64,000 nt of DNA from the sequence record PQ433349.1. The stretch is one strand, 5' to 3'. Source of the DNA: Escherichia phage vB_Ec-G1. The notes under the pieces are model-generated. The model saw nothing but the letters and a program-made list of their open reading frames with translations, was not told the origin of the DNA and searched no databases. Positions 1,128 to 38,729 of the stretch are shown here, in pieces (the first letter of the stretch is position 1; each line of letters starts with the position of its first letter). Position numbers and translations under genes: made by a program.

Positions 1128-1484
1128 TTAATAGTGAACACGCTTCATTTGAATACCATAACGCAGCATGGATTCTTTTGCAAGCATGAATTTATCCCCA
1201 GCGGAGGGATTAGAAGTATGCACGAAAATAGTAGGTGAACCAAAACAAGGTTTACCAAACATCAGGAGTTCTTCCAAACGTAAGAAAACATCATACCCAT
1301 CTTGATCAGAGTCTTCACCCAAATCGTTGTCAAAATGCCACTCGTCTACAAAACGATAACCCTTCTGCACCTCGTTCATGTAACGAGAGGCAAGAAGTTC
1401 CTGTGATGTTTTAAACCAGATTGCATCTGGATAACCATAATCTTTTGGATCACGTAAATCATCAAGCCAAATAATAGTATCCAT
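1128..1484 (-). CDS. hypothetical protein
   Basis: 118 aa ORF in leftward operon. Confidence 0.55.
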   Translation of the reverse strand: MDTIIWLDDLRDPKDYGYPDAIWFKTSQELLASRYMNEVQKGYRFVDEWHFDNDLGEDSDQDGYDVFLRLEELLMFGKPCFGSPTIFVHTSNPSAGDKFMLAKESMLRYGIQMKRVHY

Positions 1485-1494
1485 ATAACCTCCT

Positions 1495-1965
1495 CTAAGC
1501 AGGCATGATTAAAAAAGAACTCTCTACTTCAAAATGCCAATCCTCCACAAGCCCTGATTCCCAATCCTTCTCTTCATGGAAAGAGCAAATCCAACGGTAC
1601 ATACCTGGCGGTGTATTCTCAACATCTTCTGGCAACCCATAATCCAAAGCTGTCTTACCGTTCTCTGTAAAACTAGGATGGAGATTAGGAGCTTTCAATA
1701 CAGAAACCCTGCCTCCAACATCTACAGCCACAATCCACTCTGTCATGTATGGGCTGTCATATTGAGGCTCATCAGAACCTAACTCAACAGCCTCTGTGCG
1801 TAAGATGATAATAGCCTGCTCTGTGATTGGAGCTTTGACAATATAACCGTGGTCCTCAAAAAGATCGATAACCTCGAACTCATCGCCGTTTTCGACACCA
1901 TAACTCTTATTCAAAGAGATAAACTTCGGGTTATCATCGTAAGCTTTAGTTACTTTAATTCTCAT
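1495..1965 (-). CDS. hypothetical protein
   Basis: 156 aa ORF in leftward operon. Confidence 0.55.
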   Translation of the reverse strand: MRIKVTKAYDDNPKFISLNKSYGVENGDEFEVIDLFEDHGYIVKAPITEQAIIILRTEAVELGSDEPQYDSPYMTEWIVAVDVGGRVSVLKAPNLHPSFTENGKTALDYGLPEDVENTPPGMYRWICSFHEEKDWESGLVEDWHFEVESSFLIMPA

Positions 1966-2186
1966 TTTTCCTCCTTCACTTTAACCTCAAATTCTACAGG
2001 CTTACCCTCAATGTAAAAACACTGATACTCTGCCTTATCATCCTCGTCACGAGGCCAAGTTACCAAGGAGTTATAGCAATCTTCTGGTGCTTTGAAGATG
2101 TTTTTAGTCTCCACAGTAACATTCCCATTAAGTGTTGCCAATACCACCCAACCAGCTACAGGGATCATAGTGTCTCCACTTTCCAC
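1962..2186 (-). CDS. hypothetical protein
   Basis: 74 aa ORF, 4-nt overlap with downstream gene. Confidence 0.5.
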   Translation of the reverse strand: MESGDTMIPVAGWVVLATLNGNVTVETKNIFKAPEDCYNSLVTWPRDEDDKAEYQCFYIEGKPVEFEVKVKEEK

Positions 2187-2347
2187 GTTTTACCATTATC
2201 AACCAAGGTCTTTGCTACAGCATACTCCTTCCCATTAATAATGAAATAATAAACTATAAAAGATTTTCCGATTGTTACTGTCTTAGTAACCTCTACGCGT
2301 TTAACACCTTGCATGTATTTCGCCTTACCGGAATAGAGTAAAATCAT
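2165..2347 (-). CDS. hypothetical protein
   Basis: 60 aa ORF; true start may be internal. Confidence 0.4.
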   Translation of the reverse strand: MILLYSGKAKYMQGVKRVEVTKTVTIGKSFIVYYFIINGKEYAVAKTLVDNGKTWKVETL

Positions 2348-2625
2348 TTTGCATTCCTCTTGTTGTTGATAACATCCATAGCAGTATATGGTTTATTAGT
2401 GCCATGATACTCTAGAATCATTGGAGAGCCTTCTTGCACTACTTCAAAGATACCATAAACAGAACTTTCAGCAAATACCATTTGCTTCGTGCCTTCATCG
2501 TTTACAACGAGAGAAAACTTCTTGCCTGTCCCGTTGAGGATCTCGTATTTCTTGCCAGCAGTGAATAATCCAGAGTACCACTCATTATCTGTTGCTTTTA
2601 CACACTTCAGGAAAGTCTTGATCAT
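2344..2625 (-). CDS. hypothetical protein
   Basis: 93 aa ORF, coupled stops/starts. Confidence 0.5.
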   Translation of the reverse strand: MIKTFLKCVKATDNEWYSGLFTAGKKYEILNGTGKKFSLVVNDEGTKQMVFAESSVYGIFEVVQEGSPMILEYHGTNKPYTAMDVINNKRNAK

Positions 2626-2975
2626 TTCTTTTTGCTCCTCTTTTTAGATTTCTCATACAAACCTAACACAGCCGCTTCTTTTGCACAAGTAGGAACTGAA
2701 GTCATTCCTCTTCTTTTTGCTTCTGGTAGTTGCAAAGTCCATATTCCCCACCAATAAATTTGGTCTGCCGTGAGTGGTTCAGCCATTGGATCTGCCTCCT
2801 GCTCCTCAAGACGTTGCAACGCTTCTTCAATCTTCGCGATTGGTGTGTCAAAGACGAATGCCTCCGTATCAAATTTATCTTTCTTAGGAACTGATTTGGC
2901 TACTTTGAGAACCTCGTTTTTCGGTTTCTTAGTAACGTTCTTTGGCTTTGATAACTTCTTCGGTGTTTTCGCCAC
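2622..2975 (-). CDS. hypothetical lysine-rich basic protein (possible nucleic-acid binding)
   Basis: 117 aa; N-terminus MAKTPKKLSKPKNVTKKPKN and C-terminal KKRSKKK. Confidence 0.5.
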   Translation of the reverse strand: MAKTPKKLSKPKNVTKKPKNEVLKVAKSVPKKDKFDTEAFVFDTPIAKIEEALQRLEEQEADPMAEPLTADQIYWWGIWTLQLPEAKRRGMTSVPTCAKEAAVLGLYEKSKKRSKKK

Positions 2976-3168
2976 TTACTACCTCCATACGATCTAAAAA
3001 GTCATTCACAAATCTCCAATAACGTTGACCTGTTCTAAGATCTTCATAGATAACAACAGGATCAAACACTTTAGATATTCCGGCAGGTTTTGGAAATTCC
3101 ACGACCGTATATAAGCCACCTTTTGATACACAAGAATAGGTTACACCTGTAATTGGATATTTGCTCAT
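2929..3168 (-). CDS. hypothetical protein
   Basis: 79 aa ORF. Confidence 0.45.
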   Translation of the reverse strand: MSKYPITGVTYSCVSKGGLYTVVEFPKPAGISKVFDPVVIYEDLRTGQRYWRFVNDFLDRMEVVSGENTEEVIKAKERY

Positions 3169-3359
3169 TTCTTTACGTACTCCATGATTGGGGTATGGTC
3201 GCCAGTGAGCGTCACACGGTTGTAGGAAACGTTTTGTGTCTTCAACGTCTCAATCCATTCCAGGAAATGTTCTTTCGCTTCTGTGTAGTTCTGGGTGCCT
3301 TTAACAACATGAATATCATCCAGGGTGACACGGAATACCATTTGAATAACGTCTTTCAT
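3165..3359 (-). CDS. hypothetical protein
   Basis: 64 aa ORF. Confidence 0.45.
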   Translation of the reverse strand: MKDVIQMVFRVTLDDIHVVKGTQNYTEAKEHFLEWIETLKTQNVSYNRVTLTGDHTPIMEYVKK

Positions 3360-3455
3360 TTCTTACCTCCTTTGCTGTCAAAATAGCTTACCAGAACATC
3401 GTGAACCACACAAATGGCGAAAATCAGAACAATTGTTGCCAGGACTGGGTGCTCA

Positions 3456-3779
3456 CTAATTAGTGCTATCATCTTTAACTACCTCCAGTTGCCTTTCGAG
3501 TTTAACTTTGTTTGAGAACTGATAATGACACAGCTTACAATCAATGTCAACAATCTGATCGTGATTTAACCCTACAATTTTAACTTCCTTTGCACCATCC
3601 CACTCTAAGTATTCGAAGTCTGATAAACAACTACTCTTACTTAAAATAAAATCCACCTGTTGCCACTCCACCTGCATATCATCGATATGATAAGCTGCAC
3701 AGAATACATCATGGTAGTAAAATGCTATCATAACCATCTTTTCATCAATAGCAACTACTTCCCGCCTTGTAAATCTCAT
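3456..3779 (-). CDS. hypothetical protein (first gene of leftward early operon)
   Basis: 107 aa ORF immediately left of divergent intergenic region. Confidence 0.5.
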   Translation of the reverse strand: MRFTRREVVAIDEKMVMIAFYYHDVFCAAYHIDDMQVEWQQVDFILSKSSCLSDFEYLEWDGAKEVKIVGLNHDQIVDIDCKLCHYQFSNKVKLERQLEVVKDDSTN

Positions 3780-4030
3780 TCTAGCCTCCTAAACGCGTCT
3801 CTGACGCACTTTTTATATATAAGATGATAAATCACCTTACCTCGTAAGTAAACTTGCTCTACGAGCCTCTTATGAAGCTTGTGTTATAGGCTATACTATT
3901 GCTACCTGCTTAAGCAAGGTTTTTGCACACAGAAAATAATTTTAATAAAACTCTTGACTTTTGTGTTCGAAGTATGCTACCCTAGAAATCTATTAACGAG
4001 CGCAGCGAGTTAAGGTTTTAGGTTGTTGAT

Positions 4031-4232
4031 GTAGTACTCTGTACTCAAGTACTGTACTCCGTACTAGATTAATAATTATTAAATATTAATAATAAATAAT
4101 TATTAGATCTAACAAACAGGTACAGTGTATCAGAACTGGTACGTACAGATCAACTTCTATCAATTAAAAAATAAAATAATAAATTATTATAAATAATAGT
4201 TGATCTATAGATCAGTATGAAGTACAGTACGG
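4031..4232. repeat. GTAC-rich array with perfect AT-rich palindromes (candidate origin or operator region)
   Basis: about ten GTAC tetramers in ~200 bp (five as GTACT within 4034-4065), 14-bp palindrome TTAATAATTATTAA, 12-bp palindrome GATCTATAGATC, inverted copies of CAGATCAACT / AGTTGATCT. Confidence 0.6.
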
Positions 4233-4260
4233 AACATCTTAACAAGAATGGAGGTGTGCA

Positions 4261-4446
4261 ATGATTAGTGAGAATCCGTGCAAATGGCATCATGTGCCTA
4301 TTAAAGATTGTATGTCTTGTAATCCACGTTCTATTTATAACATTGCATCTTATGACGATGACAATGTGTTAGACGATGATGAAGGCTGGGAGGATTTAGA
4401 TTGGACTGGTTATGAAACCAAAAAGGATAAAATTATTCCTAGTTGA
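4261..4446 (+). CDS. hypothetical small acidic protein
   Basis: 61 aa, RBS GGAGGTG before ATG. Confidence 0.5.
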   Translation: MISENPCKWHHVPIKDCMSCNPRSIYNIASYDDDNVLDDDEGWEDLDWTGYETKKDKIIPS

Positions 4447-4483
4447 CTTAAGATATCCTTCGTGCTAAACTAGAAGTGAGGAG

Positions 4484-4735
4484 ATGCCGATCACTCCCCA
4501 TTTGGGGTTCGAAGGATATATGCAAAATAGTTTTTATTTTAGGTGCCGTGCTTGTAATAGGCATTTGACAAACCACTCCAGACGTGATAAAAATGGAGTC
4601 ATCAAGGAATCAGACCTCTGTTCTATTTGCACAGGTTTGGCTTTTGATGATAGTCCCGAAAGGGTTTATCAGCATCAATGTATAACAGACGTTCTCGTGT
4701 CAAACTTGGTAGAGGACGAACAACTAACAGATTAG
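4484..4735 (+). CDS. hypothetical Cys-rich protein (possible zinc ribbon)
   Basis: 83 aa with CRACN...CSIC pairs; RBS GAGGAG. Confidence 0.5.
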   Translation: MPITPHLGFEGYMQNSFYFRCRACNRHLTNHSRRDKNGVIKESDLCSICTGLAFDDSPERVYQHQCITDVLVSNLVEDEQLTD

Positions 4736-4743
4736 GAGGAACA

Positions 4744-4992
4744 ATGTCTCTATTAGAAAAACACGTGTTTGAAGATGGTAACGGCAATGCAGTTTTTCTT
4801 TTCCATCCAGAAAAATACACATCTGAAAACAATGGTACAACTTCTATTGTAATCACTAAAGATGTTAAAGTTATTGATTTCTTGGCTCTGATGCGAGAGA
4901 TGGATCTTGAAATTAATACTTTTAACGCAGAAGCTTTGGTTGTTGCTCTTCTGGAAAAGAAAGATAGTGAAGAAGTAGCAGAATATGCTTAA
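4744..4992 (+). CDS. hypothetical protein
   Basis: ATG at 4744 preceded by AGGAGGA; in-frame upstream extension to 4678 lacks RBS. Confidence 0.5.
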   Translation: MSLLEKHVFEDGNGNAVFLFHPEKYTSENNGTTSIVITKDVKVIDFLALMREMDLEINTFNAEALVVALLEKKDSEEVAEYA

Positions 4993-4999
4993 ATAACTA

Positions 5000-5029
5000 T
5001 TGACAAACGTATCCTTCATATGTTAGGAT
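5000..5029 (+). promoter_or_regulatory. sigma70-like promoter upstream of tRNA cluster
   Basis: TTGACA 5000-5005, 17/18-nt spacer, TTAGGAT; shares extended motif ACTATTGACAA...TATGTTAG with promoter at 5586. Confidence 0.5.
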
Positions 5030-5238
5030 ACGTTCATCAAGTGTGGTAACAGGGTCGTTGACTTTTGTTAAGAGGGGCTTGCACTGCGGTAGTGTTAGAG
5101 ACTACTTCTTCAGAGGTTAGCTACCAAAGAGGAAAAGGAATAGTCTCGGCTCAAGAACTTTTACGCTGAAAGTTGGGCTTGGTCTTAGAGAATGTAGCGG
5201 TTCTCTGCAATTGTCAGCGTCTCTGTTACCACATTTAT

Positions 5239-5313
5239 GGCCCTGTAGCTCAATGGGAGAGCTGTCGGCTCATAACCGATAGGTAGCTGGATCGAAACCA
5301 GCCAGGGCCACCA
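5239..5313 (+). tRNA. tRNA-Met: tRNA with CAT anticodon (Met/fMet/Ile2 not distinguishable)
   Basis: acceptor GGCCCTG/CAGGGCC, D-stem GCTC/GAGC, anticodon loop CTCATAA, T-arm GCTGG-ATCGAAA-CCAGC, CCA encoded. Confidence 0.75.
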
Positions 5314-5315
5314 AC

Positions 5316-5390
5316 GTCTTTATGGTGTAATGGATAGCACAGGAGTCTTCTAAACTCTTAGTCAAGGTTCGATTCCTTGTAAAGACACCA
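5316..5390 (+). tRNA. tRNA-Arg: tRNA-Arg (anticodon TCT)
   Basis: acceptor GTCTTTA/TAAAGAC, anticodon loop CTTCTAA, T-arm CAAGG-TTCGATT-CCTTG, CCA encoded. Confidence 0.75.
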
Positions 5391-5585
5391 GAACATTTTA
5401 ACATGAATTAGCTCAAGTGATTTGAACCCACTACTGATCATGGTGGCAGAGAATGAGGCAAGTATGTCAGACATTATAAACAAAGGCCACGGTTATATTA
5501 GAAGACATAAATGCTCGAAGAGCACCGTTCGTGGAGAACGGGGGTTGGTGGAGTCACCATTCATGGTAAAATGTTTTAAAAAACT

Positions 5586-5614
5586 ATTGACAACAAACAT
5601 TATTTTATGTTAGA
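5586..5614 (+). promoter_or_regulatory. sigma70-like promoter
   Basis: TTGACA 5586-5591, 17-nt spacer, TTAGAT. Confidence 0.5.
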
Positions 5615-5622
5615 TTATAAAT

Positions 5623-5713
5623 ATGGAAGGGCAAATCGACGTGGCGACGAAAACGGTCTTGAAAACCGCCGAGCTTGAAAGAGCCTTGGGAGTTCGACTC
5701 TCCCTCCTTCCGC
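5623..5713 (+). tRNA. tRNA-Ser: tRNA-Ser (anticodon TGA), long variable arm
   Basis: acceptor GGAAGGG/TCCTTCC, anticodon loop CTTGAAA, variable hairpin GAGC-TTGAAA-GAGC, T-arm GGGAG-TTCGACT-CTCCC, CCA; D-region spacing slightly atypical. Confidence 0.6.
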
Positions 5714-5737
5714 CAGATTGGTAGATTGGTAGATTGG
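5714..5737 (+). repeat. perfect tandem repeat (GATTGGTA)x3 spanning 5' end of tRNA-Ser(GCT)
   Basis: GATTGGTAGATTGGTAGATTGGTG read directly; second copy supplies the tRNA acceptor strand. Confidence 0.8.
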
Positions 5738-5811
5738 TGAAATGGTAGCCACAACAGTTTGCTAAACTGTAGTCGGAAACGGCGTGTAGGTTCGAGTCCT
5801 ACATCTACCGC
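5726..5811 (+). tRNA. tRNA-Ser: tRNA-Ser (anticodon GCT), long variable arm
   Basis: acceptor GGTAGAT/ATCTACC, anticodon stem ACAGT/ACTGT with loop TTGCTAA, T-arm GTAGG-TTCGAGT-CCTAC, CCA. Confidence 0.7.
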
Positions 5812-5941
5812 CAAGTTCTTTTTAATATAGCTTACTTTAATAGAGTAAATTTTCGGCAGATGGCCCCCATCATCTTACCGATACCTCATAGTTAGTGGTG
5901 CGAACACTGGCTATTTTAAAAAGAATTTAAATATTAGTATT

Positions 5942-6029
5942 TAGGTGAGTTAATTCCGTAGGGGTAGCGGGGCAGACTGTAAATCTGTTATCATTGCGAT
6001 TCGGGTGGTTCGACTCCATCACTCACCAC
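5942..6029 (+). tRNA. tRNA-Tyr: tRNA-Tyr (anticodon GTA), long variable arm
   Basis: acceptor GGTGAGT/ACTCACC, anticodon arm GCAGA-CTGTAAA-TCTGT, T-arm GGTGG-TTCGACT-CCATC, CCA; anticodon arm matches E. coli tRNA-Tyr as recalled. Confidence 0.8.
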
Positions 6030-6035
6030 CAAATT

Positions 6036-6121
6036 AAGATGAGTTGGCTGAATGGTTTAAGCAGCGGACTGTTAATCCGTGTTCGAAAGAACAATATAGG
6101 TTCGAATCCTATACTCATCGC
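6036..6121 (+). tRNA. tRNA, probable anticodon GTT (Asn) but with atypical long variable arm
   Basis: perfect acceptor GATGAGT/ACTCATC, T-arm ATAGG-TTCGAAT-CCTAT, CCA; best anticodon arm GCGGA-CTGTTAA-TCCGT; 15-nt extra hairpin GTTC-GAAA-GAAC. Confidence 0.45.
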
Positions 6122-6128
6122 CAGAATT

Positions 6129-6205
6129 ATGGACTTGTAGAGTTAAGGTAAACCCCCAGTCGCCAATAGGCTTCTGGAATTGCAGGTATCGAATCCTGCC
6201 GAGTC
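6129..6205 (+). pseudogene. tRNA-like element, probably non-functional or non-canonical
   Basis: acceptor-like GGACTTG/CGAGTCC and T-arm-like GCAGG-TATCGAAT-CCTGC (8-nt loop) but no convincing anticodon arm and no CCA. Confidence 0.3.
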
Positions 6206-6211
6206 CCAGCA

Positions 6212-6286
6212 TTGCTCCTATAGTATAATGGCTATTACAACGGTTTTGTAATCCGTGGATCTCTGTTCGATTCAGTGTGGGAGCAC
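6212..6286 (+). tRNA. tRNA-Thr: tRNA-Thr (anticodon TGT)
   Basis: acceptor GCTCCTA/TGGGAGC, anticodon stem ACGG/CCGT with loop containing TTTGTAA, T-loop TTCGATT, CCA. Confidence 0.6.
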
Positions 6287-6561
6287 CAACACAACATTAA
6301 GAGCACTGTGATTGATCGTCGTATCCTGTGCACAAGGTCTGCTCGAAAGACAGTGTTCTTAGTATTGTGTTGATCACAAAAAGAGTCACCCGAAACTTGA
6401 CCGGAGTAGGGTTGGATGGGGCAAAATGAGAAGCGGCTCTCCCATCGACAGCAACGAAGAATAATATTTGACTTTGGTTTTGTATTATTTTAAGTTAGCT
6501 TACCGAACGTAGGGCTAGTCACCCAACGGGATACTCGTCACTGTCCCAATCAATAAAAGTC

Positions 6562-6591
6562 TTGACAACAAATAGTAAAATGTAGTATAGT
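6562..6591 (+). promoter_or_regulatory. sigma70-like promoter upstream of tRNA-Gly
   Basis: TTGACA 6562-6567, 18-nt spacer, TATAGT. Confidence 0.55.
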
Positions 6592-6602
6592 AAATATATA
6601 GG

Positions 6603-6676
6603 GCGTTCTTGGTGTAGCGGTAGCATTCCGTCCTTCCAAGTCGGCGGCACGAGTTCGATCCTCGTAGAACGCTCCA
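6603..6676 (+). tRNA. tRNA-Gly: tRNA-Gly (anticodon TCC)
   Basis: acceptor GCGTTCT/AGAACGC, anticodon loop CTTCCAA, T-arm ACGAG-TTCGATC-CTCGT, CCA. Confidence 0.7.
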
Positions 6677-6772
6677 AATTATTTAATAAAGGGTTGCCAG
6701 AAAACTTTCTCTTTTACTCATGGTTTTCTCCTTCTCTCACACTTCTTCTGGTTGCCCTTCATTAAATGATTT

Positions 6773-6850
6773 ATTGGTTTGTAGTGTAGTCCGGTAGCAC
6801 ACGACACTTTGACTGTCGTAGGTTTGGTTCAAATCCAGACAGACCAGCCA
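6773..6850 (+). tRNA. tRNA-Gln: tRNA-Gln (anticodon TTG)
   Basis: acceptor TGGTTTG/CAGACCA (U1-A72), anticodon arm CGACA-CTTTGAC-TGTCG, T-arm TTTGG-TTCAAAT-CCAGA, CCA. Confidence 0.7.
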
Positions 6851-6855
6851 TATAA

Positions 6856-6932
6856 CGGAGTTTAGCTCAGTTTGGTAGAGCATACGCTTTGGGAGCGTAG
6901 GGTCGCAGGTTCGAATCCTGCAATTCCGACCA
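6856..6932 (+). tRNA. tRNA-Pro: tRNA-Pro (anticodon TGG)
   Basis: acceptor CGGAGTT/AATTCCG, D-stem GCTC/GAGC, anticodon arm TACGC-TTTGGGA-GCGTA, T-arm GCAGG-TTCGAAT-CCTGC, CCA. Confidence 0.8.
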
Positions 6933-6938
6933 ATTAAA

Positions 6939-7012
6939 TGTTTCGTAGTTCAATGGTAGAACCCACGACTGATAATCGTGAGACACAAGTTCGATTCTTG
7001 TCGAAACAACCA
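6939..7012 (+). tRNA. tRNA-Ile: tRNA-Ile (anticodon GAT)
   Basis: acceptor TGTTTCG/CGAAACA, D-stem GTTC/GAAC, anticodon arm CACGA-CTGATAA-TCGTG, T-arm ACAAG-TTCGATT-CTTGT, CCA. Confidence 0.8.
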
Positions 7013-7014
7013 GT

Positions 7015-7084
7015 TTCCCGTTAGACTTACAGGATAAGAGTTCCACAGCTTATTGTGATGCTGGTTCGAATCCAGCACGGGATA
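7015..7084 (+). tRNA. tRNA-like gene, anticodon unresolved (possible pseudo-tRNA)
   Basis: T-arm GCTGG-TTCGAAT-CCAGC and acceptor TTCCCGT/ACGGGAT (1:72 mismatch) but only a 4-bp CACA/TGTG stem with 6-nt loop where the anticodon arm should be; no CCA. Confidence 0.35.
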
Positions 7085-7090
7085 CATAAT

Positions 7091-7169
7091 AGCGGGATAG
7101 AGGAGTCTGGTCGTCCTCGCCAGTTTCATATGCTGGAGATCATCGGTTCAAATCCGATTCCCGCCTCCA
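7091..7169 (+). tRNA. tRNA-Met: tRNA with CAT anticodon, second copy (1:72 mismatch, initiator-like feature)
   Basis: acceptor AGCGGGA/TCCCGCC, D-stem GAGG/CCTC, anticodon arm CCAGT-TTCATAT-GCTGG, T-arm ATCGG-TTCAAAT-CCGAT, CCA. Confidence 0.65.
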
Positions 7170-7284
7170 AATATCGCTTGCCAGCGGTATCTTTGAAGAC
7201 CTTGCCTGGTTCCTTCTAAGATGGAGGGGTGCGACTCCTTAACGCACAATTATAATAAAGCATTTCAACTTAACAGTATTTACT

Positions 7285-7307
7285 AGCCTCCTTATTGGAG
7301 GCTTTTT
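7285..7307 (+). terminator. rho-independent terminator closing the tRNA cluster
   Basis: AGCCTCC-TTATT-GGAGGCT followed by TTTT. Confidence 0.7.
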
Positions 7308-7325
7308 GCTATCTATTGAATAAAA

Positions 7326-8671: not shown

Positions 8672-10747
8672 GTGGCAAAGAAAAAGGCAGCAGGTAGTTT
8701 AGCTGGAGTAGATATTGAAGTAAAGGCTCAACCAGGTAAACAGACTCTTGCAATGGATTTAATGCCAGAAGTTATGATTTATGGTGGTGCCGCTGGATGT
8801 GTTTCTGCTGAAACGGAATATCTTACAAAAGATGGTTGGAGACAGATTAGTGAATATTCAGGAGAGGATATTTACCAATACAACCCTAAGAATAAGCGTT
8901 TAGAATTGGTAACACCTTATTTTGTAGAATACGATTTAAATGGAGATAACCTATACAGAATAACAAATGGTGTAGGGTTGTTCCAAGAACTTAGTATGGA
9001 ACACCGTTTTGTATTCTATAAGAAAAAGAAATCAAAGAAACATTTCGAGATTCTTGTAGGAGATCTTATTGCATTACAGCAAATAGGAAAACCCCTTCAA
9101 GGTTATGTAGAAAATCCATTCGGTAAACGTGTTCCTTTTAACATACCTGGTAAAAAGAGCACTTACTTAAAAATACACGAGGTTATTTCAACAGATGATA
9201 AGAAATATTGTTTTGAGACTCCAAGCAGTTATATTGTCTTTAGACGTGGCGATCACTGCTTCGTTACTGGGAATAGCGGCAAGTCTCGTCTGCTATTGCT
9301 GAAAGCTTTAAAATACGCCTACAAAGATCCTTTGTTTGGTGGAATACTTTTTCGTAAGAACACCACTGCTCACCGTAAACCAGGTGGTCTGTTTACAGAA
9401 GCAAAACGTTTGTATCTTCCTTTACAACCGCACGTAAAAGAAAGTACAATGGATATCATTTTTGAAGCCACTGGTGGCGGAACCCTCAAATTCGACCATT
9501 TGGAAAATGATAACGTAACAGCAGAAACAAACCATCAGGGTACACAGTATTCAATGGTAGGTTTTGACGAGTTAACCCACTTCACGCAATATGAAATGCT
9601 CTATCTTCTGGGACGTATGCGTTCAGAATCAGAAACAAGCTTCATGTTGTGCACATGTAACCCCGATGCAGATAGTTGGGTTTTGAATTGGGTGTTACCT
9701 TATCTTGATGAGGGTGGTTATCCTAGAGAAGATATGTGTGGTAAACAAAAATATTTCATCATTGTTAACGATGAACCTGTTTTTGCTGACACACCTGAAG
9801 AACTGAAAGAAAAATATCCAGAAAACTGTTTCATGGAAAACCCTAATACAGGGGAGACAGTTGTTATTGAACCACAAACTTTCGTATTTATTGGTGGGAC
9901 AATATTTGATAACCCAGAACTGATTAGGCTTAACCCTAATTACTTAGCACAGCTTAAATCACAAACAGCAATTAAAAGAGCACAGCTTCTGGATGGTTGT
10001 TGGTTTGCACGTATTCAGAAAGAATCTTTCTTTCAACGTGAATGGTTACATAAAATATCTTATAAAGATGTTCCTAACAATCTTAAACTAATGCGAGCCT
10101 GGGATAAAGCTGTTTCAGTTCCTACAGAAACTTATCGTTATCCAGACTATACAACGTCTGTCAAAATGGGTAAAGATCAAGATGGTAATATCTACATCTT
10201 TGGTGACTATGACTATGACGCTGTGGATGAGAAAAGTAAAATTTTCGGAAGGTTTAGAAGACTACCTGGGGAAAGGGATAATCTGATTCTTAATCAATGT
10301 AAGATTGATGGACCAGAAGTTACAGTAGTGCTTCCTAAAGACCCATCTGGTGCTGGGACAATAGAATATACAGAGTCTGCAAAGAAACTTATTCTAGAAG
10401 GTTTTGTTGTTAAACCAGATGCTATGCCAGGTAACAAGAAAAAGCTTCAGCGTTTTATGCCTTTTAGTAGCGCGTGTCAAAATGGTTTTGTTTATATTGT
10501 TGAAGATTCTTTCCCTAATGTGGAAACTCTAACCCACTTTTATAAAGAATTGGAATCTTTCAATGGTGAAAGATCTACAGCCACTATTAAAGATGACATT
10601 CCCGATGCTGCTGCTTCTTGTTTCAATACTCTGTCAAAAGAGAATACTTTCAAGGCAGTAGCTATCCCTGCAACAACAAATGCTCCTACAGGATACAGTA
10701 GAATGAACAGCGGATTTCACCAACCGTATAGTGTCCGTAAAAGATAA
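8672..10747 (+). CDS. terminase large subunit, intein-containing precursor
   Basis: 691 aa; GTG start after AAGGAGG; Walker A split as GGAAG/SGKS around an insert, Walker B MVGFDELTHF; C-terminal nuclease-like region. Confidence 0.85.
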   Translation: MAKKKAAGSLAGVDIEVKAQPGKQTLAMDLMPEVMIYGGAAGCVSAETEYLTKDGWRQISEYSGEDIYQYNPKNKRLELVTPYFVEYDLNGDNLYRITNGVGLFQELSMEHRFVFYKKKKSKKHFEILVGDLIALQQIGKPLQGYVENPFGKRVPFNIPGKKSTYLKIHEVISTDDKKYCFETPSSYIVFRRGDHCFVTGNSGKSRLLLLKALKYAYKDPLFGGILFRKNTTAHRKPGGLFTEAKRLYLPLQPHVKESTMDIIFEATGGGTLKFDHLENDNVTAETNHQGTQYSMVGFDELTHFTQYEMLYLLGRMRSESETSFMLCTCNPDADSWVLNWVLPYLDEGGYPREDMCGKQKYFIIVNDEPVFADTPEELKEKYPENCFMENPNTGETVVIEPQTFVFIGGTIFDNPELIRLNPNYLAQLKSQTAIKRAQLLDGCWFARIQKESFFQREWLHKISYKDVPNNLKLMRAWDKAVSVPTETYRYPDYTTSVKMGKDQDGNIYIFGDYDYDAVDEKSKIFGRFRRLPGERDNLILNQCKIDGPEVTVVLPKDPSGAGTIEYTESAKKLILEGFVVKPDAMPGNKKKLQRFMPFSSACQNGFVYIVEDSFPNVETLTHFYKELESFNGERSTATIKDDIPDAAASCFNTLSKENTFKAVAIPATTNAPTGYSRMNSGFHQPYSVRKR
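8798..9274 (+). mobile_element. mini-intein (159 aa) inserted in terminase Walker A P-loop
   Basis: insert begins Cys43 (CVSAETEYLTKDGW), has TxxH-like SMEH, ends ...FVTGN201 followed by Ser; excision restores GGAAGSGKS. Confidence 0.7.
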
Positions 10748-10848: not shown

Positions 10849-12414
10849 GTGTCAACAGGAAAAAGAACGTACACTAAAAAGTCAGAATACTGGGACAAAG
10901 GTGCTGCAAATAAAGCTGCTCTCTCTCCAACAAAAGAAGCAGAGAAAGAGAAAACGTTACTCCTGTCACCTGAAATAGGAACGATCGGATTAAACTCAAT
11001 CAAAGCATTTACGAATTTCATGCAACCTTATGAGACTCGTTTCCCAGAATGTATTCGAACTTTTAAAGAGATGGGTGAAGACCCTGATGTAGCTACTGCT
11101 CTTGATGCTACGTATATCTTTGTAGATAGAGCATTCTTTGATTTTAAGATAAAATACAATGTAAGCTCGGCAAAGTCAAGAAAAGCTGCTAAGTTTATTG
11201 ATTATATGTTACGTAATATGCAAGCCCCTCTACGTCAATATGTTAGATCACTTTTGACATATAAGCAATATGGGTTTGCATTCGCAGAAAAAGTTTATGA
11301 GTTGGATGAAGATCCTAAGAGTCCTTACTTTGGGTATTGGCGATTAACTAAGCTGGCTTTTAGACCACAAGATACTCTTCACATGGCTCAACCTTTTACA
11401 TATTCGGCAGACGGACGTTCTATCTTGTCTGTTAACCAGAATATCACCAATACAATGTTAGCCCCAGGGAATACAACTTTAGAAACTGGTATTAAAGAAA
11501 TTCCTTTCAGTAAAGTTTTATTTGTTGGTAGCAACATTACAGAGAATAACCCACTAGGAGTTAGTCCGCTTTTAGCTGTATATCGTAGCTGGCGTGAAAA
11601 ATCTCTTATTCAGGAATTTGAGGTTATTGGGGTATCTAAAGATTTAGGCGGTATGCCAGTTCTTAAGGTTCCAAGTGACATTCTAAACAGGGCATCTTTA
11701 GATCCTGCTGGGGATGAAGCACAATCTCTTCGAGTTCTCCAAGCCAACATCGCTAACCTGCACTCTGGTGAGCAAGCCTACATGGTATTGCCTTCAGACG
11801 TTTATGAAGGTACAGTGATGCGTCAATACGATCTTGTATTCCAAGGTGTTGATGGCACGGGTAAACAGTTTGACACTCAAGCACTAATCAAACAACGCAA
11901 ACTGGATATTTATAACCGCTTTGGTGCGGGTGTGTTGATTATGGGTGATGGTGATGCAGGAAGTTTTGCGCTTTCTGACAACAAACAAACACTATTGTCT
12001 CATTTTATTGAGCGAGATGTAGATATTGTTGTAGAAGCTATAAACTCTCAACTGATCCCTCAAACACTACGACTAAACAATATCTTCCTTTCTGATGAAG
12101 ATATGCCTAAGTTTGTTAGTGGTGAAATGGGTGATCCTGATATTGAAGTAAATGCTAAAGCTATTCAACAGTTGGTAGCCTCTGGTGCAATACCTTTAAC
12201 CCCAGAAGTTATTAACGAGTTCCTTGAAAAAATTGGTTTTGAATATCGCATCCCTGACGATATTGTTGCCAATAAAGAGAAATTCTTTGAATTCATGGAT
12301 AACTATATGCCTGACAAAACTTCACGATCAGGAGATGGTTTAGCTACAGCGGGAACTGGAACGTCTGATACTGTTTCTGCTTTAGATCCTTCAGCACAAA
12401 ACCTGTCGAATTAA
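10849..12414 (+). CDS. portal protein (putative)
   Basis: 521 aa immediately after terminase; GTG start after GGAGGAA; size and position typical of portal. Confidence 0.7.
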   Translation: MSTGKRTYTKKSEYWDKGAANKAALSPTKEAEKEKTLLLSPEIGTIGLNSIKAFTNFMQPYETRFPECIRTFKEMGEDPDVATALDATYIFVDRAFFDFKIKYNVSSAKSRKAAKFIDYMLRNMQAPLRQYVRSLLTYKQYGFAFAEKVYELDEDPKSPYFGYWRLTKLAFRPQDTLHMAQPFTYSADGRSILSVNQNITNTMLAPGNTTLETGIKEIPFSKVLFVGSNITENNPLGVSPLLAVYRSWREKSLIQEFEVIGVSKDLGGMPVLKVPSDILNRASLDPAGDEAQSLRVLQANIANLHSGEQAYMVLPSDVYEGTVMRQYDLVFQGVDGTGKQFDTQALIKQRKLDIYNRFGAGVLIMGDGDAGSFALSDNKQTLLSHFIERDVDIVVEAINSQLIPQTLRLNNIFLSDEDMPKFVSGEMGDPDIEVNAKAIQQLVASGAIPLTPEVINEFLEKIGFEYRIPDDIVANKEKFFEFMDNYMPDKTSRSGDGLATAGTGTSDTVSALDPSAQNLSN

Positions 12415-38393: not shown

Positions 38394-38729
38394 ATGGAAT
38401 TTCAAGAAGCATGGGGACTTGCAAAGGATGCAATAATCCCTTTAATCGGAGTCATCTGGTTCTTTTTCAAACAAAAAATGGATAAATTCGGCTCTGATCT
38501 TGAGGAAATGGAGGAGAAAAGTCGAGAGCTAGAGAAGAAGTTGGTCTTTGTTGAATCAACTTATGCAACTAAAGCCGAACTTACCCAGATGCTAAATCAA
38601 ATTAACTCTACATTAATGGCAAATAATAACACCCTTGAGCAAAAAATTGAAAAGATTATGGACCTCAAGAATGCGACTATCCAAATGATGCTAGATGACA
38701 TAGTTAAACGTACACAGAATAAGGGGTAA
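38394..38729 (+). CDS. membrane-anchored coiled-coil protein, unknown function
   Basis: 111 aa; N-terminal TM AIIPLIGVIWFFF then charged helical region. Confidence 0.45.
   Translation: MEFQEAWGLAKDAIIPLIGVIWFFFKQKMDKFGSDLEEMEEKSRELEKKLVFVESTYATKAELTQMLNQINSTLMANNNTLEQKIEKIMDLKNATIQMMLDDIVKRTQNKG

Follow-up and report, generated by a model that had tools for sequence, protein, structure and literature searches.

Phage T4 RNAC and RNAD (species 1 and 2) are stable RNAs that come from the tRNA region and its tRNA precursors, and their roles are unknown (PMC3014915, PMC9697503). In phage T5, gene rna3 specifies the 73-nt RNA3, annotated as a stable RNA of unknown function (GenBank AY734508, KM979355), and T5-type records describe rnaX, rna2H, rnaI, rnaIII and rna3 as stable RNAs or as putative ones. 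The stability of RNA3 is as annotated in GenBank, where the record of DT571/2 says "putative". The tRNA regions of T4 and T5 are similar in build to that of Escherichia phage vB_Ec-G1 (PQ433349.1), of which we analysed a stretch of 64,000 nucleotides, hereafter the window. By sequence, its source is assignable to Phapecoctavirus, as a phAPEC8-like lytic coliphage; the closest genome given, AV126, is 98% identical to the window.

Layout of the cluster and its spacer RNAs

The cluster occupies positions 5239-7169 of the plus strand and holds 12 genuine tRNAs and two tRNA-like elements, designated TLE1 and TLE2 (Table 1). With five closed, structured spacer RNAs these make up a region of three transcription units, as predicted from three sigma70-type promoter-like sites and one terminator; the predicted start from P2 coincides with the 5′ end of tRNA-Ser(TGA), and that from P3 with the 5′ end of tRNA-Gly. 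Since every element has homologues in other phages, the elements are not products of chance.

Table 1. Features of the tRNA cluster and its surroundings (positions in the window)
Feature	Position	Strand	Basis or remark
Promoter-like site P1	5000..5029	+	TTGACA-18-TAGGAT, with TG
Spacer RNA 1, 209-nt leader	5030..5238	+	long terminal helix closes leader, GUGUGGUAACAG.../...CUGUUACCACAU; MFE -78 kcal/mol, z = -6.0
tRNA, CAT anticodon (Met, or possibly Ile2 reading AUA)	5239..5313	+	ARAGORN default, Rfam
tRNA-Arg(TCT)	5316..5390	+	ARAGORN default, Rfam
Spacer RNA 2	5391..5578	+	closed structured RNA, ~185 nt; z = -3.4
Promoter-like site P2	5587..5616	+	TTGACA-18-TAGATT, with TG
tRNA-Ser(TGA), atypical	5625..5715	+	ARAGORN -ps80 only; tRNA-Sec model 37.4 bits
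Perfect tandem repeat (AGATTGGT)x3	5715..5738	+	Tandem Repeats Finder
tRNA-Ser(GCT)	5728..5813	+	ARAGORN default, Rfam
Spacer RNA 3	5814..5930	+	three hairpins within closing helix; z = -4.3
tRNA-Tyr(GTA), type II, weak score	5944..6031	+	Rfam 39 bits (5944-6028); ARAGORN -ps80 only
Type-II tRNA-Asn(GTT), 86 nt	6038..6123	+	ARAGORN default; Rfam 62 bits; G73-CCA
TLE1, putative non-decoding tRNA-like RNA	6131..6206	+	T5 RNA3 homologue; model R2 83 bits
tRNA-Thr(TGT)	6214..6288	+	ARAGORN default, Rfam
Spacer RNA 4	6289..6561	+	structured; 5′ portion a closed hairpin; z = -2.8
Promoter-like site P3	6562..6591	+	TTGACA-18-TATAGT
tRNA-Gly(TCC)	6603..6676	+	ARAGORN default, Rfam
Spacer RNA 5	6677..6774	+	closed hairpin-like RNA; z = -6.1
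tRNA-Gln(TTG)	6775..6850	+	ARAGORN default, Rfam
tRNA-Pro(TGG)	6856..6932	+	ARAGORN default, Rfam
tRNA-Ile(GAT)	6939..7012	+	ARAGORN default, Rfam
TLE2, putative non-decoding tRNA-like RNA	7015..7084	+	model R1 87 bits; covariation
tRNA, CAT anticodon, 79 nt	7091..7169	+	ARAGORN default, Rfam
3′ trailer and intrinsic terminator	7170..7303	+	stem 7285-7303, then T run

The gaps between the tRNAs are closed structured RNAs, two of which are conserved in other phage groups. Spacer RNA 2 is kept in Vequintavirinae (Seunavirus, Cronobacter phages, 4MG), and comparison with phage KE22 (~70% identity) reveals compensatory changes in its closing helix. Spacer RNA 3 shows 75-96% conservation in rV5-like, some T5-like, Cronobacter and Justusliebigvirus phages. 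Spacer RNAs 1 and 4 were found in Phapecoctavirus alone, and the 3′ end of the former abuts the 5′ end of the first tRNA. In phiWec181, spacer RNA 5 is 99% identical, as against 69-81% for spacers 1-4.

Two families of tRNA-like RNAs

The sequence-only reading had described the stretches at 6129-6205 and 7015-7084 as having acceptor and T arms without a proper anticodon arm, and this description held. Taking as a canonical tRNA one that reaches the RF00005 gathering cut-off of 29 bits or is called by ARAGORN at default settings, neither TLE1 nor TLE2 is canonical; both are absent from Rfam matches even at E <= 10, and ARAGORN calls them at -ps80 only. The same reading had staked its claim on such software not folding the odd elements as canonical tRNAs, and, when run, it did not. 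The relaxed calls are, for TLE1, a "Leu-CAA" tRNA that has C33 and a T loop of 8 nt and lacks CCA, and for TLE2 a "4-base anticodon" tRNA overlapping tRNA-Ile.

Like canonical tRNAs (RF00005), both elements lie among tRNA genes, and covariation maintains in each an acceptor stem of 7 bp and a T stem of 5 bp; TLE2 has in addition a TTCGAAT T loop and a D hairpin with GG. They differ from canonical tRNAs in lacking the anticodon arm of 5-bp stem and 7-nt loop with conserved U33 and a purine at 37, in the 8-nt T loop of TLE1, and in the absence of an encoded CCA from both window copies. In each family a hairpin of varying length takes the place of the anticodon arm, and neither U33 nor an anticodon is conserved in it. 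In TLE1 its loop is GCCAAUA, with C33, and loops of 4, 6 and 7 nt occur across lineages; in TLE2 a 5-bp stem carries a CUUA tetraloop, the family having loops of 3, 4, 6 and 9 nt, and the stretch from position 26 to the T stem is 3-4 nt shorter than in any tRNA. The 3′ tail of TLE2 is A-CAU in the window and ACAU, ACCU or ACCC within the genus, whereas the copies of phiEB49, KP8 and SonariX end in CCA, as does T5 RNA3. The phiWec187 copy of TLE1 also lacks CCA.

TLE1 aligns with T5 RNA3 over its full length, and with copies in Epseptimavirus and Justusliebigvirus, and is a homologue of T5 RNA3. Model R2 scores T5 RNA3 at 93 bits, TLE1 at 83 and the family at 77-93, and it matched no ordinary tRNA at E <= 0.001, or at E <= 0.01 in a search of the T4 tRNA region. 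Each copy in T5, Epseptimavirus, Justusliebigvirus and the window lies directly 3′ of tRNA-Asn, the intervening spacer measuring 7 nt in vB_Ec-G1 and 2 nt in T5. Copies of TLE2 were found in five lineages, namely Phapecoctavirus, Vequintavirinae (A7_1), Drexlerviridae (phiEB49), Schitoviridae (KP8) and Enterobacter phage SonariX, and its architecture recurs in myo-, sipho- and podoviruses. Model R1 gives this family 84-98 bits and the best ordinary tRNA at most 49. Public records leave the homologues of TLE2 unlabelled or call them tRNAs; the labels tRNA-Val in phiEB49 and tRNA-Leu in KP8 are misannotations.

Covariation, counted over 4-5 distinct phage lineages, is evident in both families. 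For TLE1, pairing holds in 93.8% of cells and both sides have changed in 8 of 12 pairs, with slid controls at 21-42%; for TLE2 the corresponding values are 96.2% and 8 of 21, with slid controls at 34-42% and none of 500 shuffles reaching the observed value. Identity to phiWec181 is 97.4% for TLE1 and 95.7% for TLE2, that is, 96-97% as compared with 69-81% for spacers 1-4, and the changes within the genus fall in loops or convert G.U to A-U. Host-encoded copies were looked for and none were found. These comparisons indicate that TLE1 and TLE2 represent conserved, covarying families of apparently non-decoding tRNA-like RNAs, and that purifying selection on the acceptor stem, T arm and D region, though not on the anticodon-arm position, is as strong as that on tRNAs.

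The tRNAs and the codons they read

Twelve tRNAs had been claimed from hand folding, and all twelve were recovered: ten by ARAGORN at default settings, all on the plus strand, tRNA-Tyr(GTA) by the Rfam tRNA model and tRNA-Ser(TGA) at relaxed settings. CCA is encoded in each (12/12). The two weaker members are detected at relaxed thresholds only, and homologues of both are conserved, the relatives of tRNA-Tyr(GTA) being annotated as Tyr or as pseudo-GTA. The best T4 match of the first CAT tRNA is tRNA-Ile(CAU), with the first 18 nt identical. The D loop of the last CAT tRNA is long, and its pair 1:72, A1xC72 here, is a mismatch in each of the three genomes compared.

In tRNA-Ser(TGA) the acceptor stem has 7 bp and the T stem 5 bp; the variable arm is long, G73-CCA is present and the D region is non-canonical (CAAA-UCG...CGA-AAA). 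Homologues labelled tRNA-Ser(TGA) occur in Justusliebigvirus, T5-like phages, Seunavirus and Mydovirus, and this unusual D region recurs in Mydovirus, where TAG/CTA is a compensatory change. The best score of this tRNA falls on the tRNA-Sec model (RF01852), and its homologues in Justusliebigvirus and Seunavirus resemble tRNA-Sec and other tRNAs of extended D stem in having an 8/4 acceptor/T fold and a D stem of 5 bp with a 4-nt loop; the window copy differs in having a 7/5 fold. An assignment as tRNA-Sec was rejected, the 37.4 bits being below the gathering cut-off of 47 and the anticodon being UGA, for the serine codon UCA, rather than UCA, for the stop codon UGA.

The repeat (AGATTGGT)x3 spans the spacer between tRNA-Ser(TGA) and tRNA-Ser(GCT) and the first 11 nt of the latter. 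A perfect threefold repeat at the start of tRNA-Ser(GCT), as previously described, is thus real, but in the frame then chosen the third unit ends in G rather than A. The spacer between the two serine tRNAs is 4-5 nt in relatives and 12 nt here, because the relatives have one repeat unit fewer. The repeat is a strain-specific 8-nt slippage duplication, a trivial polymorphism.

Codon usage in 57 window ORFs was compared with that in 49 ORFs of a 49-kb E. coli K-12 sample. The phage has a G+C content of 39.5%, and its five most enriched codons (ACA, GGA, ATA, CCT and AGA) are all read by cluster tRNAs, ATA being enriched 3.5-fold; among the most enriched codons overall, 12 of 16 are covered. The proposal that the anticodons supplement AT-rich phage codons is supported by this comparison: the cluster tRNAs read exactly the A/U-ending codons over-used by the phage relative to E. 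coli.

Processing, charging and possible roles

We consider it reasonably probable that the cluster is a tRNA region of the T4/T5 kind in which TLE1 and TLE2 are excised, stable, trans-acting tRNA mimics and the type-II tRNA-Asn is charged by AsnRS. Because the acceptor/T-arm shape has been kept, host tRNA-processing enzymes would be expected to excise both elements from the polycistronic precursor, with RNase P cutting the 5′ side. The elements would then accumulate as stable RNAs of ~70-76 nt, by analogy with the T5 annotation of RNA3, and might work in trans as mimics rather than decoders. Their target could be a factor of host or phage origin that recognises the acceptor/elbow portion of tRNAs, for example a defence, modification or processing enzyme. 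The lack of CCA and the variable tail of TLE2 may mean that a tRNA-like 3′ end is unimportant, or that the window copies are less functional than those ending in CCA.

A purely cis-acting role would fit equally well, because the conserved parts of the elements are those that RNase P needs. On this alternative, which we hold possible though rather unlikely, TLE1 and TLE2 are former tRNAs that act only as processing scaffolds: the RNase P cut at their 5′ side would make the short 3′ trailer of the upstream tRNA and separate the transcript, and the excised RNA would be idle. RNase P accepts minihelix substrates, and what it recognises, namely the acceptor stem and T arm, is conserved here while the anticodon arm and CCA are free to vary. 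In every genome examined, moreover, the elements follow a tRNA at a distance of 2-7 nt (in phiWec181 an ORF replaces the upstream tRNA-Asn), and they close the tRNA run in T5, Epseptimavirus, phiEB49, SonariX and A7_1. The phiWec181 arrangement argues against a scaffold, however, in that TLE1 is retained at its high identity although a small ORF has taken the place of its tRNA partner. TLE2 appears to move as its own module, because four different tRNAs (Ile, Tyr, Arg and Gln) precede it in different phages, and the 669-bp phiEB49 stretch examined contains just one other tRNA-type gene. Moreover, the D-region sequences (GUAGAGUUAA; UUAGGCUUACAGGAUAAGA) are conserved beyond what RNase P recognition alone should need, and most neighbouring tRNAs of the cluster mature without such a partner.

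The charging of the GTT tRNA bears on the other part of our preferred reading. A type-II-length variable arm had been ascribed to this gene at 6036-6121; the long arm is real, and the coordinates are 6038-6123. The tRNA is a phage tRNA-Asn body with a hairpin inserted in the variable region rather than a serine derivative. Its acceptor pattern, its D, T and anticodon arms (the last with a CUGUUAA loop) and its G73-CCA are shared with the type-I phage tRNA-Asn(GUU) of Klebsiella phage KP8, Enterobacter phage SonariX and T5, which lack the ~10-nt variable-region hairpin that makes it type II. The insert has a 4-bp stem and GAAA loop here and a 3-4 bp stem across variants, and the arm covaries (GTTC/GAAC, GAAC/GTTC, GTC/GAC). 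The same type-II form is present in Justusliebigvirus, Epseptimavirus and Seunavirus, and BLAST matches suggest that some T4-like phages may carry one too.

SerRS does not depend on the anticodon, and this tRNA, whose variable arm is long, whose discriminator is G73 and whose 3-bp D stem contains C11:G24, might conceivably accept serine and insert it at asparagine codons, SerRS reading the arm and G73. We regard this as improbable. Without the insert, the body fits the type-I tRNA-Asn of KP8 and SonariX better than it fits serine tRNAs, with alignment scores of 28-39 for Asn and 17-21.5 for Ser tRNAs. GUU stands in an asparagine-type loop above an Asn-like body, whereas of the type-II serine features the long arm is present and a Ser-like body and anticodon are not. 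G34-U35-U36 and G73 are all present, and we take these to be the E. coli AsnRS identity set. Further, the stem of the arm has no more than 3-4 bp, the acceptor begins G1-C72, A2-U71 where serine tRNAs have G2-C71, the type-II variant is widespread among lytic coliphages, and, as asparagine codons make up 5.8% of phage codons, a systematic Asn-to-Ser swap would be very costly. Charging by AsnRS would make the extra arm a phage-specific structural variant.

Two further readings of the tRNA-like elements are both very improbable. Decaying pseudogenes, neutral relics of duplicates losing their anticodon arms, would explain why standard tRNA finders miss them and why the window copies lack CCA, and TLE2 does have a T arm in common with T5 tRNA-Asn and a resemblance to tRNA-Gln, which it adjoins in N4-like phages; but all helices are kept by compensatory changes across 3-5 lineages, substitutions avoid or repair the stems, identity exceeds that of four of the five flanking spacers, and the same architecture recurs in three phage morphologies. 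Unusual functional decoders, with TLE1 as tRNA-Leu(CAA) and TLE2 as a 4-base-anticodon tRNA or tRNA-Val(AAC), would imply frameshift suppression or recoding and could draw on the relaxed ARAGORN calls (the 4-base anticodon being "tcca"), the recorded Val and Leu labels and a possible 7-nt loop, UUAACAA, in the phiEB49 copy, but loop length and sequence differ in every lineage, most copies lack U33, the "anticodon" assignments conflict among homologues, and TLE2 is too short between position 26 and the T stem.

Among known RNAs, T5 RNA3 is closest to TLE1, sharing the GUAGAGUUAA(G) motif, the T loop of 8 nt with sequence YAUYGAAU, an acceptor stem of seven positions, a T stem of 5 bp, a hairpin replacing the anticodon arm and a place on the 3′ side of tRNA-Asn. 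It differs in its U1xU72 mismatch, where TLE1 has G1-C72; in the 3′ end, which is ...CACAGAU-A-CCA in the T5 and Epseptimavirus copies and ...CGAGUCC-C-AGC, without CCA, in TLE1; in the length and sequence of the middle hairpin; and in the upstream tRNA-Asn, type I in T5 and type II in the window. Global alignment gave no homology of T4 rnaC or rnaD to TLE1 or TLE2, and on the T4 tRNA region models R1 and R2 match ordinary tRNAs at most. RNAC and RNAD, at 139 and 119 nt, are longer than TLE1 and TLE2 and not cloverleaf-sized, but they too are non-tRNA small RNAs inside a phage tRNA operon, and RNAC has a tRNA-like T arm, CCGGGUUCGAAUCCCGG. The cluster of vB_Ec-G1 probably adds a new member to an old class, the stable RNAs of the T4 and T5 tRNA regions.

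Organization and coding capacity of the tRNA cluster

Window positions 4990-7310 align over their full length, at 97.7-98.5% identity, with the best 30 Phapecoctavirus matches listed. Coverage of this region is 80% or more in 69 records, and phage AV126 is the top match. The matching phages are phAPEC8-like E. coli myoviruses of ~150 kb from the subfamily Stephanstirmvirinae, and the public annotations of these relatives place 10-11 tRNAs at the cluster and no other feature. In the relative anhysbys, the cluster resides at the junction between leftward early genes, which include an RNA ligase and a phosphoesterase, and rightward late genes, among them those for the large terminase subunit and the portal protein. 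By comparison with anhysbys, the phosphoesterase gene adjoins a putative RNA ligase gene just upstream of the window, ~5 kb from the cluster, and by analogy with T4 Pnk/Rnl the two products may constitute a tRNA-repair pair.

Four strong promoter-like sites (TTGACA and TAnnnT separated by 17-18 nt) were identified on the + strand, together with a single intrinsic terminator, and the cluster can therefore be divided into three predicted transcription units. From the spacing of these sites, we infer that transcription would start near the 5′ ends of the Ser-TGA and Gly tRNAs.

Features of the tRNA cluster (+ strand) and flanking genes, with predicted transcription units
Feature	Window coordinates	Unit
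Phosphoesterase gene (minus strand)	209-760	
Promoter-like site P1	5000	
Spacer 1	5030-5238	P1
First CAT tRNA	5239-5313	P1
tRNA-Arg		P1
Spacer 2	5391-5578	P1
Promoter-like site P2	5587	
tRNA-Ser(TGA)	5625-5715	P2
Threefold repeat	5715-5738	
tRNA-Ser(GCT)		P2
Spacer 3	5814-5930	P2
tRNA-Tyr(GTA)		P2
tRNA-Asn(GTT), type II	6038-6123	P2
TLE1	6131-6206	P2
tRNA-Thr		P2
Spacer 4	6289-6561	P2
Promoter-like site P3	6562	
tRNA-Gly		P3
Spacer 5	6677-6774	P3
tRNA-Gln		P3
tRNA-Pro		P3
tRNA-Ile		P3
TLE2	7015-7084	P3
Second CAT tRNA	7091-7169	P3
Trailer		P3
Intrinsic terminator	7285-7303	P3
Fourth promoter-like site	7327	
Large terminase subunit gene	8672-10747	
Portal protein gene	10849-12414	

The sequence-only reading had listed twelve tRNAs, and all are present: ten are reported by ARAGORN at default settings, Tyr-GTA is added by the Rfam tRNA model (39 bits), and Ser-TGA is recovered by ARAGORN only at a relaxed threshold, scoring 37.4 bits, below the cut-off, on the tRNA-Sec model. 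The same reading had singled out two elements without a proper anticodon arm, here called TLE1 and TLE2, and neither ARAGORN nor Rfam finds them at standard settings. Under relaxed settings, ARAGORN draws 6131-6207 as a 'Leu-CAA' that has C33 and a T loop of 8 nt but lacks CCA, and 7008-7085 with a 4-base anticodon and an overlap with tRNA-Ile. An encoded N-CCA is present in all twelve tRNAs and in neither of the odd elements, which end in C-AGC and A-CAU, respectively. The original observation is confirmed and its interpretation supported.

Codon usage was compared between 57 window ORFs (17,466 codons) and 49 ORFs from a 49-kb region of E. coli K-12, using one ORF caller for both. The codons most enriched in the phage are ACA (4.2-fold), GGA (3.7), ATA (3.5), CCT (3.1) and AGA (2.6), and cluster tRNAs read each of these codons if either CAT tRNA is of the Ile2 type. 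The proposal that the cluster supplements the codons favored by the phage holds up, with 12 of the 16 most enriched codons covered. The T4 tRNA closest to the first CAT tRNA is tRNA-Ile(CAU), whose first 18 nt are identical. Because of this match and the enrichment of ATA, the first CAT tRNA, which relatives annotate as tRNA-Met, may instead be an Ile2-type tRNA that reads AUA.

The second CAT tRNA (79 nt) has a long D loop and an A1xC72 mismatch, and phiWec187 (UxC) and inny (CxU) likewise have mismatches at position 1:72. This mismatch recalls initiator tRNAs, although the three anticodon-stem G-C pairs of the initiator are absent, and some records flag the gene as a pseudo-tRNA. An annotation problem of another kind was encountered in Klebsiella phage vB_Kpn_K23PH08C2 (OY757067), where ARAGORN finds 19 + strand tRNAs within positions 1262-6371. 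This region is annotated wholly as minus-strand pseudo-CDSs ('RNA ligase', 'phosphatase', 'exonuclease'), an annotation that looks spurious.

Atypical tRNAs and an embedded repeat

The GTT-anticodon tRNA had been described as carrying a variable arm of type-II length, and it does: it scores 62 bits as a tRNA, with a variable arm consisting of a 4-bp hairpin capped by a GAAA loop. Its nearest relatives among 119 phage tRNAs are type-II Asn tRNAs and the 75-nt tRNA-Asn of phages KP8 and SonariX, with Ser tRNAs far behind, and the alignment reveals a tRNA-Asn body bearing an insert of ~10 nt in the variable region. The stem of the inserted arm is GTTC/GAAC, GAAC/GTTC or GTC/GAC depending on the lineage, and because the stem flips in this way the arm is a real structural feature. 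AsnRS identity in E. coli resides mainly in GUU and G73, both of which are present. T5 carries a type-I Asn tRNA at the same position; Seunavirus shares the type-II variant (85 nt), and BLAST coverage suggests that such a variant may occur in some T4-like phages. A mistranslating tRNA derived from Ser or Tyr was considered and rejected, because the body aligns with type-I phage tRNA-Asn.

Ser-TGA is accepted as a real but atypical tRNA. In its fold, the acceptor stem is 7 bp, the T stem 5 bp and the variable arm 4 bp, and the anticodon loop, CUUGAAA, is good, but the D region is odd (CAAA-UCG-ACGUGG-CGA-AAA). The odd D layout recurs in the Ser-TGA of Klebsiella Mydovirus, where UAG/CUA is a compensatory change; in Justusliebigvirus and Seunavirus the D stem is Sec-like, with 5 bp and a loop of 4 nt, and the T4 and N4-like copies are canonical. 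Homologues are called tRNA-Ser(TGA) by ARAGORN at default settings, and some records list them as tRNA-Ser. In AV126 (OR352956, ~2220-2226), this tRNA reads ...CCTTCAGCCA versus ...CCTTCCGCCA in the window, giving G1xA72 atop the acceptor stem, which may reflect relaxed constraint on Ser-TGA in some strains.

A perfect (AGATTGGT)x3 repeat, reported earlier at the start of tRNA-Ser(GCT), was located by Tandem Repeats Finder. Mt1B1_P17 and WPEC4 carry one unit fewer, and the spacer between the two Ser tRNAs is 4 nt in these phages, 5 nt in AV126 and 12 nt in the window. A functional role for the repeat is rejected because copy number differs between near-identical relatives. The repeat arose recently, when slippage duplicated 5′ sequence of the tRNA itself into the spacer, and its last copy still provides tRNA-Ser(GCT) with an intact 5′ end.

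Two families of tRNA-like elements

In the sister genus Justusliebigvirus (phiWec187, inny), the cluster is syntenic and contains an unannotated gap of ~80 nt between Asn and Thr that aligns with TLE1. Compensatory changes occur in the acceptor stem (2:71 G-C to U-A and 3:70 A-U to G-C), the T stem (GCAGG/CCUGC to GUAGG/CCUAC) and the middle hairpin (CCAG/CUGG to CUAG/CUAG), whose length differs by 8 nt. The element likewise lies 3′ of tRNA-Asn in T5-like Epseptimavirus phages; the T5 record (AY734508) lists it as 'RNA3', a misc_RNA of 73 nt, and the DT571/2 record labels it 'putative stable RNA with unknown functions'. Across four lineages, 93.8% of alignment cells pair, compared with 21-42% in slid controls, and both sides change in 8 of 12 pairs. 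Family members share the motif GUAGAGUUAA, a D hairpin of 3 bp (GUU/AAC) and a T loop of 8 nt, with a hairpin bearing a 4-, 6- or 7-nt loop at the anticodon-arm position. At the thresholds applied (E <= 0.001 or E <= 0.01), R2, a covariance model of this family, picks up no ordinary tRNA and matches only family members in T5-like, Justusliebigvirus and Phapecoctavirus phages (77-93 bits). A loose 15-base RNA3 pattern gave mostly chance matches in IMG/VR; when a tighter three-part pattern was combined with R2, only contigs of these same three groups remained. Among the features tested, only the encoded CCA sets TLE1 apart from the T5 RNA3 family, to which it belongs.

The idea that the conserved TLE1 11-mer acts as a base-pairing 'seed' was considered and rejected. 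Its one exact complement, the 11-nt TTAACTCTACA at window positions 38602-38612 within an ORF at 38394-38729, is probably a chance match, since complementarity goes no further.

Homologues of TLE2 were detected by BLAST in unrelated phages, where they are either unannotated or assigned conflicting tRNA identities. The element follows tRNA-Tyr directly in A7_1 (Vequintavirinae) and tRNA-Gln in Enterobacter phage SonariX, unannotated in both; it is labelled tRNA-Val in phiEB49 (Drexlerviridae), where the 669-bp stretch examined has just one other tRNA-type gene, and tRNA-Leu in the N4-like Klebsiella phage KP8. Scanning IMG/VR with a structural pattern yielded more N4-like and SonariX-like contigs, in which TLE2 comes after tRNA-Gln and ends a small tRNA cluster that starts with Asn (Asn-Asp-Tyr-Gln in two of them). 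Across five lineages, 96.2% of cells pair and both sides change in 8 of 21 pairs, values reached by none of 500 shuffles, and slid controls gave 34-42%. The family conserves UUAG(G/A)CUUA-N4-5-UAAG, which forms a D hairpin with GG in the loop, and a T arm with a UUCGAAU loop. The anticodon-arm position is taken by a hairpin of 5-7 bp whose loop has 3, 4, 6 or 9 nt and lacks a conserved U33, and relative to a tRNA, 3-4 nt are missing between position 26 and the T stem. At the 3′ end, phiEB49 and SonariX have A-CCA, KP8 G-CCA, A7_1 C-CAA and the window A-CAU. The TLE2 motif has no target within the window.

R1, the covariance model of the TLE2 family, scores members at 84-98 bits and the best ordinary tRNA at 49 bits or less. 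A single family comprising both elements was rejected: R1 misses TLE1 and R2 misses TLE2, and we therefore retain two families of similar architecture.

Constraint, possible function and relation to known stable RNAs

The divergent Phapecoctavirus phiWec181 (LC739534) provided an internal control for constraint. Of the ten tRNAs whose position is conserved, eight are 94-100% identical to those of the window, the exceptions being Thr (84%) and Pro, which carries an 88-nt insertion, while spacers 1-4 retain 69-81% and the promoter regions 74-88%. TLE1 (97.4%) and TLE2 (95.7%) are as tightly constrained as real tRNAs. At positions 1283-1523, a 42-aa ORF takes the place of the type-II tRNA-Asn, and TLE1 is kept directly downstream. 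The tRNA-Tyr of this phage is a different allele (56% identity). Within the genus, TLE1 varies in its loop and a C-run linker; in TLE2, one difference converts a hairpin G.U to A-U, and the tail reads ACAU, ACCU or ACCC. Neither element has a BLAST match in 5,426 complete E. coli genomes, and the TLE2 structural pattern finds four matches in 185,579 bacterial and archaeal genomes (one per species), none scoring as TLE2; a host origin is rejected on these grounds. The constraint in phiWec181, the changes within the genus and the absence from hosts together exclude neutral pseudogenes and point to phage-specific RNAs under selection.

Both elements are conserved tRNA-shaped RNAs in which selection falls on the acceptor stem, T arm and D region. 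We favor a mechanism in which RNase P and 3′ processing enzymes would excise TLE1 and TLE2, which would then accumulate and serve as trans-acting tRNA mimics. The chief competing model is a purely cis role, with the elements serving as RNase P entry sites; action in trans is preferred because TLE2 travels between unrelated phages beside different tRNAs and because TLE1 outlasts the loss of its upstream tRNA. Anticodon function is conserved in neither element, and decoders and pseudogenes are both unlikely readings.

Individual T5 tRNAs defeat tRNA-cleaving host systems, with tRNA-Lys overcoming PARIS (PMC11464382) and tRNA-Tyr overcoming retron Eco7 (PMC11555353), and phage tRNA clusters have lately been re-read as counter-defence arsenals. 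By analogy, a tRNA-mimic role for TLE1 and TLE2 is plausible. A more specific proposal, which we consider doubtful, is that the RNA3 and TLE2 families form an unrecognised class of anticodon-less tRNA mimics that spread horizontally among enterobacterial myo-, sipho- and podoviruses and act in trans on a host factor by which the acceptor/elbow half of tRNA is recognised; one such action would be to neutralise or titrate a defence enzyme directed at tRNA. If true, this class would extend the finding that phage tRNAs act in anti-defence and, after decades, give the T4/T5 'stable RNAs' a function. Literature searches covering Phapecoctavirus tRNAs, T5 stable RNAs, tRNA-like decoys and long-arm tRNA-Asn revealed no account of the elements, and we found none of TLE2 as a family. 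The present results establish conserved homologues of T5 RNA3 in Stephanstirmvirinae and an element, TLE2, common to five unrelated phage lineages. With two defined non-decoding tRNA-like families, each with conserved motifs and natural variants, the old stable-RNA question is now testable. For annotation, such elements should be neither counted as decoding tRNAs nor ignored.

Every gap of more than 90 nt between tRNAs of the cluster forms a self-contained fold closed by a long terminal helix, with z-scores for spacers 1 to 5 of -6.0, -3.4, -4.3, -2.8 and -6.1. Conservation of spacer 2 is ~70% in Vequintavirinae (Seunavirus, Cronobacter phages, 4MG), where its closing helix shows compensatory changes, and that of spacer 3 is 75-96% across rV5-like, some T5-like, Cronobacter and Justusliebigvirus phages. 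None of the five spacers matches an Rfam family. The T5-type rnaX, rna2H, rnaI and rnaIII share this closed architecture but no sequence similarity; kinship of the spacers or TLE2 with these RNAs was rejected after a sensitive local BLAST against the T5 stable RNAs, in which the sole match was rna3 with TLE1. T5 'RNAX' (AY734508, 7168-7886; comparison sequence L133, 7665-8300), annotated as a stable RNA of 636-719 nt directly 5′ of tRNA-Arg, holds an internal tRNA-like T arm, GUAGGUUCGAAUCCUAC. Like spacer 1, it is a long leader that ends at a tRNA.

In the tRNA regions of T4 and T5, tRNA genes are interleaved with small stable RNAs, and the cluster described here is of this type. Such small non-tRNA RNAs have been known in T4 and T5 since the 1970s and are still without a function (PMC3014915). 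The elements in the window belong to this already known but unexplained kind.
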